This document shows, in pieces, positions 1-6,249 of a stretch of 64,000 nt of DNA. Under the pieces are notes generated by a model that saw only the letters and a program-made list of their open reading frames with translations, did no database searches and was not told the DNA's origin. The number at the start of each line of letters is the position of its first letter. Position 1 is the stretch's first letter. This DNA is from an uncultured Hormoscilla sp. (lineage in GTDB: Bacteria > Cyanobacteriota > Cyanobacteriia > Cyanobacteriales > Desertifilaceae): positions 5,632,001-5,696,000 of the forward strand of contig OZ001293.3 of NCBI GenBank assembly GCA_963921275.4. The letters are read 5' to 3'. Position numbers and translations under genes: made by a program.

Positions 1-351
1 CTTGCTAATTGCTAATTGTTCGTAATTATTTATTGCCATGAGCCTCGTTCCCTGGCGACCCCTGGGAACGGAGCTGCGATGTACACGGCTGCGCCCCACA
101 TCGCGCAGCGCTATCGGGGCGCGCTAGTCGCACTACCTCACGCTGCGCGTCCGCGTAGCGTGCGCGCAGCGCATAAAATCGCACATCGCCATGAGACAAT
201 ACTTTATAGACAGCTGGGGCTACTGAATTAATCGGCATCGTAATTGTACTTTTACCCCAGCCTCAGCTAATATAGGAAAACTTTTAGATTTTCTCTGGAA
301 ATCGCTCTACATTGATAGAAATGGTAATTAAATCGTAATTTATTGTACAAT

Positions 352-3300
352 ATGCATCGAATTTCGGCAACCCCTGGAGGGTGGAATTTTCAAGACATAG
401 GCACGATCTTTATTCAGCAGACCTCCGCACCGATCGTCTGCTTGAGTGCGGCTGATACGGACATTCAAACCCTGGCAGCGGCTGTAAAGCAGTTACCAGT
501 TGAGTTTCCATCTGTGCGAGTGGTTAATCTCTTGCAATTGCAGCAACAATTGAGTATTGATATTTATGCAGAAGAAGTGCTGGGGTCTGCCCAGGTGATT
601 ATTTTGCGGCTGCTGGGAGGGCGGGCCTACTGGTCCTATGGGTTAGAAGTATTAAAAGAAACGGTAGAAAACACGGGTGCTGCTTTGATTGTGCTACCAG
701 GAGACGATCGCCCGGATCCAGATTTAATCGGTCACTCGACTATTTCCCTGGCAGTTGCGAACCAGTTGTGGCGCTACTTCACTGAAGGTGGGATTGTCAA
801 TTTTACCAATGCGCTCAAATTCGTTGCTGACGCCTGTTTGGGATCTAGCTATAACCCACCACCTCCCCAAGCAGTACCCCTGGTGGGACTTATCCGGTGG
901 AATAATAACAGTCAGCAAGCAGTTAAGAAAGTAGGTATTTTATTTTATCGCGCTCATTATCTGGCTGGCAATATTGCACCGATCGATGCTCTATCTGCGG
1001 CTTTGGCAGAACGGCAATTAGAACCACTGCCCCTGTTTGTCTCTTCTCTGCGCGATCGCGAGGTCCAAGCTGAAGTGAATTCCTTTTTCCAGTCACGGGA
1101 AATTGACTTGTTGCTGAATACGACGAGTTTTTCTATTGCTCGATTAGATTTAGAATTGCCTTCGATGTCTCTCGGTGCTGCGTCTCCTGGGAGCTTGATG
1201 TCTCCCGGACGCACTTCGATGCCTACCGTTCCGGAAAAATCGGGATGCTACGCTGCGCGAAAAATCGCACAAACCTACGATGCCTTCCGGACGCACGGCG
1301 AAAACCCGGAAGGCATCACTCAGGCATCGTCGAAACCCGGGGGACATCATAGTCGCACTACCCAGGAGACGCAGCGCGCTACTCGCACTACCCGAGAGAC
1401 ATCGGAGTTAGATTTGTGGAAAAGTCTAGATGTGCCAGTTTTGCAGGTAATTTTCAGCGGCGGTACGGTGGCACAGTGGCAGTCGGGAACTGGGGGGTTG
1501 ACGCCACGGGATGTGGCGATGAATGTGGCCCTACCAGAGGTGGATGGGCGAATTATTAGCCGTGCGGTTTCTTTTAAGGCGGTGCAAAACCACGATCAGG
1601 ATTTGGAAACAGATGTTGTAATTTATCAACCAGAGCGATCGCGGATTAATTTCGTTGCCGATCTAGCAGCTAATTGGGTGCGACTGGGGCAAACACCAGC
1701 AGGGTCAAGGAAAATTGCTCTGATTTTAGCGAATTATCCCACTCGTGACGGACGTTTGGCTAATGGCGTTGGCTTAGATACCCCCGCTAGTTGTGTCGAA
1801 ATTCTCAAAGCTTTGTCAGCAGCGGGATATCTTGTGGAGAATATTCCGGCTAAGGGGGACGAACTGATTCAACGTCTGACTGCTGGGGCGACCAATGACC
1901 CGGAAGAAAAAGAGTTACGATCGATCGAACATTGCTTGCCCCTAGAGGAATATCGGGAATATTTTGCCAACTTGCCCCCCAAAGTGCAGCAGGAAATCGG
2001 CGATCGCTGGAGAGATTGTACTGAGAAAAATATTCCTATTCCTGGTATCAGGTTGGGGAATATCTTTGTCGGCATTCAACCAGCGCGAGGCTACGACATC
2101 GACCCAGCTTTGAATTATCATGCCCCAGATTTAGAACCGACTCATGCTTATTTAGCTTTCTACTATTGGTTGCGGCAAGGGTTTGGGGCTCATGCGATCG
2201 TGCATCTGGGCAAACACGGAAATTTAGAATGGTTGCCCGGTAAAAGTGTTGCCCTGTCCGATACTTGTTATCCCGAGATCGCCTTGGGTGCCATGCCCCA
2301 TTTTTATCCTTTTATTGTCAATGACCCCGGGGAAGGTTCTCAAGCTAAGCGGCGATCGCAGGCAGTAATTATCGACCACCTGACGCCCCCCATGACTCGG
2401 GCGGAACTTTACGGTCCTTTGCAGCAGTTGGAAAGTTTGATTGATGAGTATTACGAGGCCCAAATGCTAGACCCTTCCCGCTTGCCCCCCATTCGCGATC
2501 GCATCACTTCTCTCTTCCAGGAAGAAAACTTACACCAAGATTTAGCACTTGTCAAGTCAGTAGAATTTACCGAATTGCTGAAGAGTGCGGATGGTTATTT
2601 ATGCGAATTAAAAGAGGCTCAAATTCGGGATGGTTTGCATATCTTTGGGCAATGTCCTCAAGGGCGTCAGTTGCGGGATTTGATGGTGGCGATTTCCCGT
2701 GGCCGCACCACCGGCATTACCCGCAGTTTAGCAGTTGATTGGGGTCTGGACTTCGACCCCCTGACCGCAGACCTAGCTCAAACTTTCCTAAACCAAAGGG
2801 CGAATGCGCTGCGCGCACGCTACGCGGACGGGCATTTATCCAAACCCTGTTTCACCGTCGGGGATGTCATTGCGGAATTAGAAGAAAAAGCCGCTGAATT
2901 AGTCCAACAGCTAATTGAAAGTCATCAATGTACAATTAATAATGTACAATTCATAAAAACCCAGGAAGAATTAAATTGGATCGGCAAGAAACTTCTCCCG
3001 GCATTGCAAGAAACTAAAGAGGAAATTACCCAACTGTTGCGGGGACTAGACGGGCTGTATGTACCCAGCGGTCCGGCGGGGGCACCGACAAGGGGGCGTC
3101 CGGAAGTTTTACCCACGGGTCGTAATTTCTATTCTGTAGATATCCGGGCAATTCCGACAGAAACAGCTTGGGATATTGGACGCAAGGCCGCTGAGGCATT
3201 GATTGAAAGTTACACTCAGGAAAATGGGGAATATCCTCAAACTTTGGGACTGTCTGTCTGGGGAACTTCTACCATGCGATCGGGTGGGGACGATATCGCA

Positions 3301-4341
3301 GAAGCGTTAGCATTGCTAGGGGTGCAACCAGTGTGGGATGGTCCCGGACGGCGGGTGGTGGATTTTGAAATTCTGCCCATCTCCTTTTTAGGACGCCCCC
3401 GGGTAGATGTGACTTTGAGGATTTCGGGATTTTTCCGGGATGCTTTTGCTAATTTAATCGATTTATTTGACCGCGCAGTGGCAGCAGTTGCCGCTTTGGA
3501 CGAACCCCCAGAAGACAATCCTTTGGCATCCCAAGTGCAGCAAGAAACTCAGTTTTGGTTGGCAGAAGGGTTGACTCAGTCCCAGGCAGAGGCCCGATCG
3601 CGCTATCGGGTGTTTGGTTCTAAACCCGGTGCCTACGGTGCTGGTTTACAAGGTTTAATTGCAGCCCAAAACTGGACGGACGATCGGGATTTAGCGCGGG
3701 CTTACATTAACTGGAGTAGCTACGCTTATACTAAGAATAACATGGGTCATGCTGCGCCGGAAGCCTTTGAGCAGCGCCTGCAACAGATGCAGATCGTCCT
3801 GCACAATCAGGACAACCGCGAACATGACTTGCTGGACTCTGATGATTATTACCAATTCCAGGGGGGGTTAACGGCGGCAGTGCGATCGCTTACTGGAAAG
3901 AATCCCCAAACCTATTTTGGGGATAATTCCGTGCCCCAAAATCCCCGAGTGCGGCAGTTGCGGTCGGAAATCGCCCGAGTCTATCGTTCGCGGGTGGTAA
4001 ATCCCAAATGGATTGCGGGGGTGATGCGTCACGGTTATAAAGGTGCCTTTGAAATTGCCGCAACGGTGGATTATTTGTTCGCCTACGATGCGACAGCTAA
4101 CTGCGTAGAAGATTACATGTATCAGGGAGTAGCTGATGCCTATTTGCTGGACCCAGCAGTACAAGAATTTATCCACGAAAAGAATCCTTGGGCCTTGCGG
4201 GATATGGCAGAACGGTTGTTAGAAGCTCATCAGCGGGGTTTCTGGCAAAATGTAGATGGAAAGATGGTAGATCAATTGCGCGCGATCGCCCATCTTGCGG
4301 AAGGGGCGATCGAAGATACTCTCCCGATCAGGAAATCCTAG
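352..4341 (+). CDS. cobN: Cobaltochelatase subunit CobN, with in-frame repeat insertions
   Basis: About 1330 aa. Motifs HLGKHGNLEWLPGK, LPTGRNFYSVD, HNQDNREHDLLDSDDYYQFQGG, WIAGVMRHGYKGAFE. ATG at 352 (ORF track uses TTG at 343). Confidence 0.95.
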   Translation: MHRISATPGGWNFQDIGTIFIQQTSAPIVCLSAADTDIQTLAAAVKQLPVEFPSVRVVNLLQLQQQLSIDIYAEEVLGSAQVIILRLLGGRAYWSYGLEVLKETVENTGAALIVLPGDDRPDPDLIGHSTISLAVANQLWRYFTEGGIVNFTNALKFVADACLGSSYNPPPPQAVPLVGLIRWNNNSQQAVKKVGILFYRAHYLAGNIAPIDALSAALAERQLEPLPLFVSSLRDREVQAEVNSFFQSREIDLLLNTTSFSIARLDLELPSMSLGAASPGSLMSPGRTSMPTVPEKSGCYAARKIAQTYDAFRTHGENPEGITQASSKPGGHHSRTTQETQRATRTTRETSELDLWKSLDVPVLQVIFSGGTVAQWQSGTGGLTPRDVAMNVALPEVDGRIISRAVSFKAVQNHDQDLETDVVIYQPERSRINFVADLAANWVRLGQTPAGSRKIALILANYPTRDGRLANGVGLDTPASCVEILKALSAAGYLVENIPAKGDELIQRLTAGATNDPEEKELRSIEHCLPLEEYREYFANLPPKVQQEIGDRWRDCTEKNIPIPGIRLGNIFVGIQPARGYDIDPALNYHAPDLEPTHAYLAFYYWLRQGFGAHAIVHLGKHGNLEWLPGKSVALSDTCYPEIALGAMPHFYPFIVNDPGEGSQAKRRSQAVIIDHLTPPMTRAELYGPLQQLESLIDEYYEAQMLDPSRLPPIRDRITSLFQEENLHQDLALVKSVEFTELLKSADGYLCELKEAQIRDGLHIFGQCPQGRQLRDLMVAISRGRTTGITRSLAVDWGLDFDPLTADLAQTFLNQRANALRARYADGHLSKPCFTVGDVIAELEEKAAELVQQLIESHQCTINNVQFIKTQEELNWIGKKLLPALQETKEEITQLLRGLDGLYVPSGPAGAPTRGRPEVLPTGRNFYSVDIRAIPTETAWDIGRKAAEALIESYTQENGEYPQTLGLSVWGTSTMRSGGDDIAEALALLGVQPVWDGPGRRVVDFEILPISFLGRPRVDVTLRISGFFRDAFANLIDLFDRAVAAVAALDEPPEDNPLASQVQQETQFWLAEGLTQSQAEARSRYRVFGSKPGAYGAGLQGLIAAQNWTDDRDLARAYINWSSYAYTKNNMGHAAPEAFEQRLQQMQIVLHNQDNREHDLLDSDDYYQFQGGLTAAVRSLTGKNPQTYFGDNSVPQNPRVRQLRSEIARVYRSRVVNPKWIAGVMRHGYKGAFEIAATVDYLFAYDATANCVEDYMYQGVADAYLLDPAVQEFIHEKNPWALRDMAERLLEAHQRGFWQNVDGKMVDQLRAIAHLAEGAIEDTLPIRKS
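1162..1404. mobile_element. Nested hairpin mini-element insertion (about 240 nt, in frame) in cobN
   Basis: Outer inverted repeat CGATGTCTCTCGG/CCGAGAGACATCG encloses GCTGCGTCTCCTGGG/CCCAGGAGACGCAGC, then GATGTCTCCCGG/CCGGGGGACATC, then GATGCCTTCCGG/CCGGAAGGCATC. Translates to about 80 low-complexity residues. Confidence 0.85.
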
Positions 4342-4581: not shown

Positions 4582-5571
4582 ATGTCAGATCGGAATGAAA
4601 TAACAGCAGAATATGATAGTCCTTGGAAGGATATCATAGGAAACTATTTCCCCGAATTTATGGAATTCTTTTTCCCCTCGGCCTATGGGGAAATAGACTG
4701 GTCGAGAAAATACGAATTTCAGGAGACCGAACTCCAGCAGGTGCGACCGAAAGCGGAGATAGGAAAGCGCGTCGCCGACAAACTAGCCAAGGTTTGGCTA
4801 AAAAATGGCGACGAACTGTGGGGGATGGTGCATATAGAAGTCCAGAATCAGCGCAAAACAGCCTTTGCTAAACGGATGTACACCTACAACCATCGCATCG
4901 GAGATCTTTACAACTGCCAAGTAGCCAGTTTTGCTGTCCTCACTGACGCAGATGCTGGATGGAGACCAACTCAATTTAGCCAACAACTGCTAGGATGTGA
5001 GATAACCTTTAACTTCCCGATCGCGAAGTTGCTAGACTATAAGCAGAGGTGGCAAGAGTTAGAAGAAAGCCGGAACCCCTTTGCGATCGTCGTGATGGCC
5101 CATCTGAAAGCTCAAGAAACACAGGGACAACAACAGGAACGCAAACGCTGGAAGTTGTCTTTAATCAGGCGGTTGTATCAGGGAGGATATGAACGAGAAG
5201 AAATTATCAACCTGTTTAAGTTCATTGACTGGGTAATACAACTGCCCAAAGAACTGGAAACAGAGTTTTGGCAAGAAGTAAATCAATTCCAGGAGGAAAA
5301 ACAGATGCAATACATCACCAGTGTGGAAAGAATTGGCATCGAGAAAGGCGTTCAGCAAGGTCTTGAGCAGGGCCTTCATCAAGGTGCCCTGCGGCATTTG
5401 TTGCGAGCGCTGCAACTAAGGTTTAACTCGGTGCCAGAGTCGCTACAGAGTCGCCTCACCTCTTGTACTGTGGAGCAACTAGATGAGCTTTTCGATATGG
5501 CGCTGACAGTGGAGCAGTTAGATCAGTTCATCGGAAGTATCCCGGTTGATGATACATCAGCAGAAGGATAG
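4582..5571 (+). CDS. Rpn/recombination-promoting nuclease-like protein (DUF4351-like C-terminus)
   Basis: YDSPWK N-terminus, DKLAKVW...HIEVQ PD-(D/E)XK-type motif, MQYITSVERIG tail. Confidence 0.8.
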   Translation: MSDRNEITAEYDSPWKDIIGNYFPEFMEFFFPSAYGEIDWSRKYEFQETELQQVRPKAEIGKRVADKLAKVWLKNGDELWGMVHIEVQNQRKTAFAKRMYTYNHRIGDLYNCQVASFAVLTDADAGWRPTQFSQQLLGCEITFNFPIAKLLDYKQRWQELEESRNPFAIVVMAHLKAQETQGQQQERKRWKLSLIRRLYQGGYEREEIINLFKFIDWVIQLPKELETEFWQEVNQFQEEKQMQYITSVERIGIEKGVQQGLEQGLHQGALRHLLRALQLRFNSVPESLQSRLTSCTVEQLDELFDMALTVEQLDQFIGSIPVDDTSAEG

Positions 5572-5656: not shown

Positions 5657-5905
5657 ATGAACGTCCGCGAAGAAACAATTGCTAAGATTAATCAACTGCC
5701 TGAAGAGCTTGTTCGGGAAGTTAATGATTTTGTCAGCTTCTTGTTGACGAAACGCGAATGCGCTGCGCGCACGCTACGCGATCGCAGGCAGTTGTGGGTG
5801 CAATTTGCCGAGAGAATAGAATTGGCAGAATCTGATTTTGCAGATTATTTATCTAACTTGCAAGACTATGAGGAACGTTTAGCTCGTGGAGAAATTCAAT
5901 GGTAA
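5657..5905 (+). CDS. Antitoxin (DUF2281-like) with an 8-aa repeat insertion
   Basis: AGGAG RBS, INQLPEELVREVNDFVSFL, overlaps the downstream toxin. Contains a 24-nt insert at about 5758-5781. Confidence 0.7.
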   Translation: MNVREETIAKINQLPEELVREVNDFVSFLLTKRECAARTLRDRRQLWVQFAERIELAESDFADYLSNLQDYEERLARGEIQW

Positions 5906-6249
5906 ACGTTATCCGAGGCGATGTGGTATTATGCGATCTTAATCCGGTAATTGGTACGGAACAAGCAGGGATACGACCGGCGGTAATCGTACAAATAGAT
6001 CGGGCTAATGCGGTTAGCCCTCACACAATTATTGCACCATTTACGAGTAAGATTAGGCAGGTGCTTTTGCCTTCCCATGTATTCGTGCCTGCTGGTGTGG
6101 GTGGCTTGACTCTAGACTCTGTGATTCTGTGCGAACAGGTTAGAGTAATTGACAAGTCTCGAATTGTTAAGGCGATCGGTCATTTGGATGATGCCTATAT
6201 AAAAGAACTAGCAATAGCTTTGGGTACAATATTGGGGTTGTCGCTATAG
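5899..6249 (+). CDS. PemK/MazF family toxin
   Basis: RGDVVLCDLNPVIGTEQAGIRPAVIVQ ... DSVILCEQVRVIDKSR. Confidence 0.92.
   Translation: MVNVIRGDVVLCDLNPVIGTEQAGIRPAVIVQIDRANAVSPHTIIAPFTSKIRQVLLPSHVFVPAGVGGLTLDSVILCEQVRVIDKSRIVKAIGHLDDAYIKELAIALGTILGLSL

Follow-up and report, generated by a model that had tools for sequence, protein, structure and literature searches.

The window, a 64,000-nt stretch of DNA from an uncultured Hormoscilla sp. (genome G000), carries near its start an uninterrupted plus-strand frame which was identified as cobN, the gene of a cobalt-inserting enzyme of the vitamin B12 pathway, by a match to PF02514 and by a match at E = 0 to the CobN entry 9uk9 of the PDB. Inside this frame lies a net insert of 243 nt, corresponding to 81 codons (window 1162-1404); the coordinates and the open frame given for it in the preliminary description of this DNA were both correct. 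The features of the gene and its upstream region are:

343..4341, plus strand: cobN, cobaltochelatase catalytic subunit; 1332 aa from TTG at 343, 1329 aa from ATG at 352
1161..1405, plus strand: whole nested insert, 245 nt replacing 2 target nt; flanked by Pro and Gln/Glu in a variable loop
2804..2827, plus strand: second cobN micro-insertion, 24 nt, in frame (+8 aa); missing in the congeners G001, G002 and G004
75..186, plus strand: related nest of mini-hairpins upstream of cobN, 112 nt; missing in G002, G003 and G004, the three congeners aligned

The 81 extra residues follow the NTTSF strand of CobN and precede its DVPVLQV strand; they are missing in the aligned homologs, which display the clean gap that the preliminary description had predicted. 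The loop measures 98 aa here compared to 11-31 aa in 26 of 29 other loci (the measurable ones), and DNA alignment with the four same-genus genomes, which are approximately 94% identical, showed the site to be empty in all four. The exact register, with 245 nt replacing two, we infer from the junction rule of filled and empty sites presented below. No strain with a partial cobN stack was found, as the CobN protein cluster has a single member and a junction scan of metagenome contigs gave no match. At the second micro-insertion (2804..2827) the alignment of G003 differs, and 24-mers like it occupy HIP1-like sites elsewhere, as SDR5 of Nostoc punctiforme reportedly does. A 15-nt duplication-like indel is found at 2936-2950 of the window, in a stretch of cobN that varies among the congeners. 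G001 and G002 (L003 and L004) have a different palindromic insert of their own, approximately 66-74 nt long, in another cobN loop at window 911-929; the G002 gene (L004) also contains single-base frameshifts at homopolymers, which are probably sequencing errors. The ORFs at 4582-5571 and 5899-6249 appear to resemble a nuclease of the Rpn type and, together with a partner upstream, a toxin of the PemK/MazF type.

An assembly artefact of collapsed repeats, which the preliminary description had named as a possible refutation, would fit the multicopy nature of the inner parts and the fact that no contig among those of runs X1/X2, X5 and X6 crosses the entire insert. However, unique contigs joining flank to element were recovered from the runs of three studies. 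Contigs of run X6 (study P3), from a slightly different strain with 3 and 7 other letters, span both junctions, a contig of run X5 (study P2) matches the right junction exactly (1290-1576), and the contigs of X1/X2, possibly the source runs, also reach both. The insert furthermore carries private substitutions compared to its sister copies, and we regard the chance of an artefact as negligible.

The insert contains five nested inverted-repeat pairs (1160-1175/1392-1407, 1177-1191/1361-1375, 1196-1208/1337-1349, 1217-1224/1322-1329 and 1279-1290/1306-1317), four of which bear GATG..CATC ends. The nesting had thus been recognised correctly, while the earlier count of four pairs, three of them with such ends, was low. 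Parsed against simpler copies, the five stems and two 15-nt mini-hairpins make up seven units:

1161..1175, plus strand: Unit A, type-1 hairpin, left part (own net +45; right part 1376..1405)
1376..1405, plus strand: Unit A, right part, which carries the loop motif CGCACTAC
1176..1194, plus strand: Unit B, type-1 hairpin in the loop of A, left part (own net +45)
1350..1375, plus strand: Unit B, right part, which carries the loop motif CGCACTAC
1195..1214, plus strand: Unit C, type-2 hairpin in the loop of B, left part (own net +39)
1331..1349, plus strand: Unit C, right part
1215..1330, plus strand: Unit D including the cargo, type-2 hairpin in the loop of C (own net +42)
1225..1239, plus strand: 15-nt mini-hairpin (15a) in the left arm of D, preceded by CGA on the minus strand
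1250..1264, plus strand: 15-nt mini-hairpin (15b) in the loop of D, preceded by CGA on the minus strand
1276..1319, plus strand: Unit E, innermost type-2 hairpin (own net +42); free-standing copies also occur elsewhere

Unit A holds B, B holds C, C holds D, and D holds the two 15-mers and E. By coordinate bookkeeping, the own net lengths of A, B, C, D, the two 15-mers and E are 45, 45, 39, 42, 15, 15 and 42 nt, which add up to 243. All seven are multiples of three; steps of 40 and 43 nt exist elsewhere in the genome. Unit A has a 14-bp stem and the loop AGCGCTANTCGCACTA, the type-2 unit C has a loop of the form ACGCAC..CGAAAC, and the nesting step represented by unit B is also present as a polymorphism between G004 and G000. 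Both sequences previously reported as recurrent loop motifs do recur, CGCACTAC with 12 occurrences in the window and 651 on the chromosome, and CGCTGCGCGAAAAATCGCA with 3 and 28, respectively, but the latter is not the loop of a big hairpin; it consists of a separate 15-nt element together with three target bases. The predicted fold of 1155-1412 has an energy of -138.1 kcal/mol (z -11.9), which was equalled by none of 200 shuffles.

Matches to the type-1 loop motif numbered 201 in G000 and 33-113 per genome in the four congeners, but there were none in 36 other relatives and at most one per genome across 400 other genomes of the phylum, 396 of which had none. In a collection of genome contigs, all 78 of the matches listed (at least 78) were Hormoscilla records, and a search of plasmids gave no match; across the genomes searched, the repeat sequence is confined to one genus. 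The family makes up approximately 0.46% of the chromosome. Its large units are hairpins of 39-47 nt with stems of 13-15 bp, and among 66 perfect copies (of 139 exact-loop monomers) 41 distinct perfect stems were found, the two arms co-varying; hairpins with unmatched, mosaic arms are also present. Self-nesting is common, with 95 of 345 innermost monomers nested and 92 of these sharing the orientation of the host unit, although nested counts and nested junctions are not independent, since one event may be copied repeatedly. Single nesting steps appear as polymorphisms when compared with G004. When the chromosome was divided into 14 bins, the two orientations of the motif were balanced in every bin and formed no replication-strand blocks, which is a weak test. 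Literature searches retrieved no description of these repeats in the papers covered, and a search by term of the main text of two Hormoscilla genome papers (PMC6520454, PMC7313196) returned no passage on such elements.

The ends of the units were defined with filled and empty pairs taken from 2.4 of the 6.9 Mb of G004 together with paralogues in G000. This yielded 71 unique pairs, of which 64 were kept and 7 with poor flanks dropped; the empty alleles come from genomes that are approximately 94% identical, or from paralogues, so that single-base calls are blurred. In the main junction class (33/64 pairs), the first base of the unit is T in 30 of 33 and the first lost target base is G in 29 of 33, while at the next target base the filled and the empty allele have different letters in 18 of 33 (10 of 23 at free sites), compared to 0-6 of 33 at other flank positions. 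The remaining 31 pairs comprise 18 whose length is reduced by two nt, most of them located at a single loop site, and 13 of other lengths. These counts indicate that a unit consists of T plus a closed hairpin, replacing two target bases; the junction is polar and the main class shows no target duplication. A C precedes the leading T in 16 of 33 empty sites and in 65 of 97 non-coding copies, and the HIP1 sequence GCGATCGC is spanned by none of the 63 empty alleles of the 45- and 42-nt classes. The register of the cobN insert agrees with the rule, whose G is not probed at this site because the congeners show C or T there (the Pro wobble position). Two ways of generating the stems were considered and rejected: templating by the target, as an inverted copy of the flank, since the stems belong to the element, and rebuilding of the arms from each other in every copy, since in many copies D retains arms that do not match and a 15-nt insert on one side only.

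The imperfect pairs also bear on which strand is folded. One pair of the mini-stem reads C.A in 248 of 251 type-1 copies, which is a T.G wobble on the opposite strand; this near-invariant pair suggests that the folded strand is the one antisense to cobN. Similarly, distinct stem mismatches comprise 59 A.C against 33 G.T (p = 0.009), and the insert folds better as the minus strand (-141.5) than as the plus strand (-137.1). Viewed on the minus strand, the unit is a hairpin with one 3' A, antisense in cobN. We consider a single-stranded intermediate rather likely.

The core of the cobN insert has a history of its own. Simpler and more complex forms occur in the genome, namely D alone, D[15a], D[E], D[15a,E], C[D], C[D[15a]] and the full core. 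The composite D[15a,15b,E] exists in four copies in G000, in cobN, at C1:5082512, at C1:6373148 and free at C1:5696008, and the shells around the four differ. At C1:5082512, the outer shell is common to G004 and G000, while the core is found in G000 only and G004 has other loop content; at C1:6373148, G000 has a 287-nt nest where the site in G004 is empty. Three of the four copies keep the reading frame of their gene and encode nearly the same peptide: apart from the one in CobN, they lie in a ketoacyl synthase (462 aa; L183:344-1729), with 86% over 77 aa, and in a PEP-utilising enzyme (862 aa; L184:320-2905), with 84% over 43 columns. The free copy in the latter gene has unique flanks, with approximately 10-20 nt of possible homology on each side, and composite copies end in the same way as monomers. 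The 287-nt copy, which is not a multiple of three (L185:1149-1436), lies outside any ORF of at least 150 codons, directly upstream of an ORF that its translation names as psbC-like, and could affect the expression of this ORF.

The preliminary description had proposed serial insertion of mini-elements into each other. As a general process this is supported by the free simpler forms and the G004 polymorphisms, but the cobN stack was probably not assembled unit by unit inside cobN, because its core is a ready-made composite common to three other loci, and because the shell of one core copy predates the species split. Four separate builds of the same core are unlikely, which leaves copying of the unit or conversion between nests. 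We consider it likely that the inner core was copied in as one piece. The presence of the core in frame in two unrelated enzyme genes makes it likely that selfish DNA is pasting one floppy peptide into several proteins.

The consequences for the proteins were assessed with gene calls consisting of plain ORFs of at least 300 codons. About a quarter of the free type-1 copies (37/134) lie inside such ORFs, and among the 36 located in open long-ORF frames, 17 use the frame rich in Ser, Thr and Pro, compared to 6.4 expected (p = 5e-5), and only one uses the hydrophobic sense frame, compared to 5.8 expected; the expected counts were derived from the target preference. In the cobN insert, the outer units are in the favoured frame and 23 of the 81 residues are Ser or Thr. 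The AlphaFold model gave pLDDT values below 50 over nearly the whole insert, with a flanking fold that matches CobN 7c6o. For cobN without the insert, the G000 branch has a dN/dS of 0.15 (33 non-synonymous and 66 synonymous changes over 1049 codons), with congeners at 0.10-0.36, and 6 of 10 cobN differences from the X6 strain, which has the same junctions, are synonymous. Judged by these substitutions, cobN is under purifying selection. Taken together, the frame bias, the dN/dS and the model make it likely that the insert is translated as a tolerated, disordered loop of a working CobN. The new protein loop proposed earlier is thereby supported, but only indirectly; nothing suggests that the loop is useful.

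A mechanism that would account for these observations starts with a unit being lifted as a folded single strand together with any cargo that its loop contains; the strand would be the one opposite the CGCACTAC motif and would end in a single 3' A. A group II intron reverse transcriptase would then use the folded strand as a template, beginning at the 3' end, and add the copy to a broken end of the target. This would explain the fixed T, and the far end would be joined through 1-2 bases of microhomology. A single-stranded template copied from the 3' end is suggested by several features in combination: one end is exact, the other shows 1-2 bases of homology, cargo is tolerated and the fold depends on a wobble. 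Loops of earlier copies would be preferred landing sites, so that stacks grow, and selection would purge copies within genes that shift the frame or encode a hydrophobic peptide. Such a structured template would borrow a reverse transcriptase. Group II intron reverse transcriptases are reported to switch template on one base pair (PMC3683930) and to be able to join ends by microhomology (bioRxiv 2022.03.14.484287). G000 has 93 RVT_1 matches, and all four reverse transcriptase loci scanned gave group II intron matches in Rfam.

Other observations bear on the proposed enzyme. Among relatives, reverse transcriptase matches numbered at least 58 in G002, 46 in G004 and at least 57 in G028. As a predictor of the repeats the number fails, since G028 with its at least 57 matches has no type-1 motif; in the fragmented assemblies of G001 and G003, 3 and 8 reverse transcriptase matches were found against 33 and 69 motifs. 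The large units have no tail, neither a donor locus nor a processed RNA was found for the units, and Rfam returned nothing for the insert and no intron family for window 1-3000 among matches up to E = 10. An origin of the units from domain V/VI of group II introns was considered and has no Rfam support, though the reverse transcriptase loci do match. As the mobilising enzyme, a group II intron reverse transcriptase is our best guess, with prospects that, judged from sequence, fall somewhat short of even.

The main rival, which we judge unlikely, is transposition of the hairpins as single-stranded DNA, with an HUH transposase (Y1, RAYT/IS200-like) acting in trans to cut and join them. The hairpin shape, the lack of target duplication and the C preceding the leading T in the sites and copies counted above would all suit such an enzyme, several TnpA-REP subclasses are reported from Cyanobacteria (PMC6006769), and two Y1_Tnp matches are present in the genome, of which one is strong and the other (L072) marginal. 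The strong Y1 gene (L071:1290-2400; G000:C1:241795), however, is flanked within 1.6 kb around L071 by a different repeat, tandem and palindromic of the GTAG type, which presumably gives the locus the look of a RAYT with its own REPs. Y1 enzymes carry out exact strand transfer, and both the overwritten target bases and net lengths of 43-48 nt are unlike this; the balanced orientation of the motif in the 14 chromosome bins also speaks weakly against it. Alternatively, only monomers would be mobile, and the shared cores would result from gene conversion among look-alike copies with transfer of nest contents. All shells have loop and arm sequence in common, mosaic hairpins with unmatched arms are known in the genome, and the core at C1:5082512 occupies the place of other loop content in G004, all of which could be products of conversion. 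Nevertheless, the copy in the PEP-utilising gene offers little homology beside its unique flanks, composites end like monomers, and the arrival of monomers at new sites would be left unexplained, which makes this reading quite unlikely.

Two further alternatives concern the fate of CobN. The gene could be inactivated by the insert and decaying in a symbiont that obtains cobalamin from elsewhere, as 81 extra residues and an mRNA hairpin of -138 kcal/mol could block folding or translation. Against this, all 1332 codons are open, the dN/dS lies inside the range of the congeners, most differences from the X6 strain are synonymous and the loop naturally varies in length among homologs, and we find decay very improbable. 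The very stable fold, which closes exactly at the ends of the insertion, and the richness of the genome in group II introns would also be compatible with an intervening sequence at the RNA level, where the hairpin joins the ends and the insert is spliced out or skipped, leaving CobN without it. Every step is a multiple of three, however, and copies within genes favour one benign frame; the better-folding strand is antisense and the insert has no intron match in Rfam. Excision is a very remote prospect as well. Our best overall explanation, a stack of mobile hairpins whose core was copied whole, inserted by a reverse transcriptase and tolerated as a protein loop, has about an even chance of being right as a whole when read from the sequences. 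A bolder and rather doubtful reading takes the units for bacterial micro-retroelements: hairpin RNAs of 45 nt would exploit the reverse transcriptases of group II introns as hitch-hikers, with any cargo in the loop, and would thereby copy a ready-made disordered peptide of 40-80 residues into unrelated enzymes. If true, new protein sequence could arise by this route, and the units would represent a minimal system for RNA-to-genome insertion.

To our knowledge, neither the small dispersed repeats (SDRs) of Nostoc nor the Rickettsia palindromic elements (RPEs) have a proven mover. The present family has hundreds of copies, many filled and empty pairs and a polar junction rule that predicts the strand and ends of the intermediate, and the movement of bacterial repeats of less than 50 nt thereby becomes testable. 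It also shows new protein sequence spreading as a module, with nearly the same peptide in CobN, a ketoacyl synthase and a PEP-utilising enzyme, and selection is visible on the length and reading frame of the copies within genes.

Elhai and co-workers reportedly described SDR1-8 of Nostoc punctiforme in 2008 as elements of 21-27 nt with compensatory changes and, for SDR1 and SDR4, self-nesting. Like these, the Hormoscilla repeats are tiny, dispersed and structured, encode no enzyme, nest within themselves (95/345) and show compensatory changes. They differ in that the large units have net lengths of 39-45 nt, with only the 15- and 24-nt companions near 21-27 nt, in that the type-1 motif is confined to one genus and in that whole composites are apparently copied; SDR5 is furthermore reported to insert between bases 3 and 4 of HIP1, a target (GCGATCGC) not used by the 45- and 42-nt classes (0/63). 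With RPEs they share the in-frame placement of a palindromic repeat within protein genes. RPEs, like intragenic REP clusters, are described as in-frame palindromes in housekeeping genes, the clusters adding 43-82 residues (PMC3733652), and the passages of that paper on singles, dimers and clusters contain no loop-in-loop stack. The sequences are unrelated to RPEs, the host is a cyanobacterium and thus belongs to another phylum, and in Hormoscilla a single composite encodes the same peptide in three enzymes that are unrelated to each other. The likeness to SDRs and RPEs drawn in the preliminary description therefore stands as an analogy rather than as membership, given that length, target or sequence differ. 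As in the REP/REPIN-RAYT systems, in which non-autonomous hairpin DNA is thought to be moved in trans (PMC3116915, PMC6006769), the hairpins are non-autonomous, but they have no terminal GTAG tag and no link to the strong Y1 gene of the genome. Finally, unlike a MITE, the main class overwrites two nt of its target and leaves no target-site duplication.
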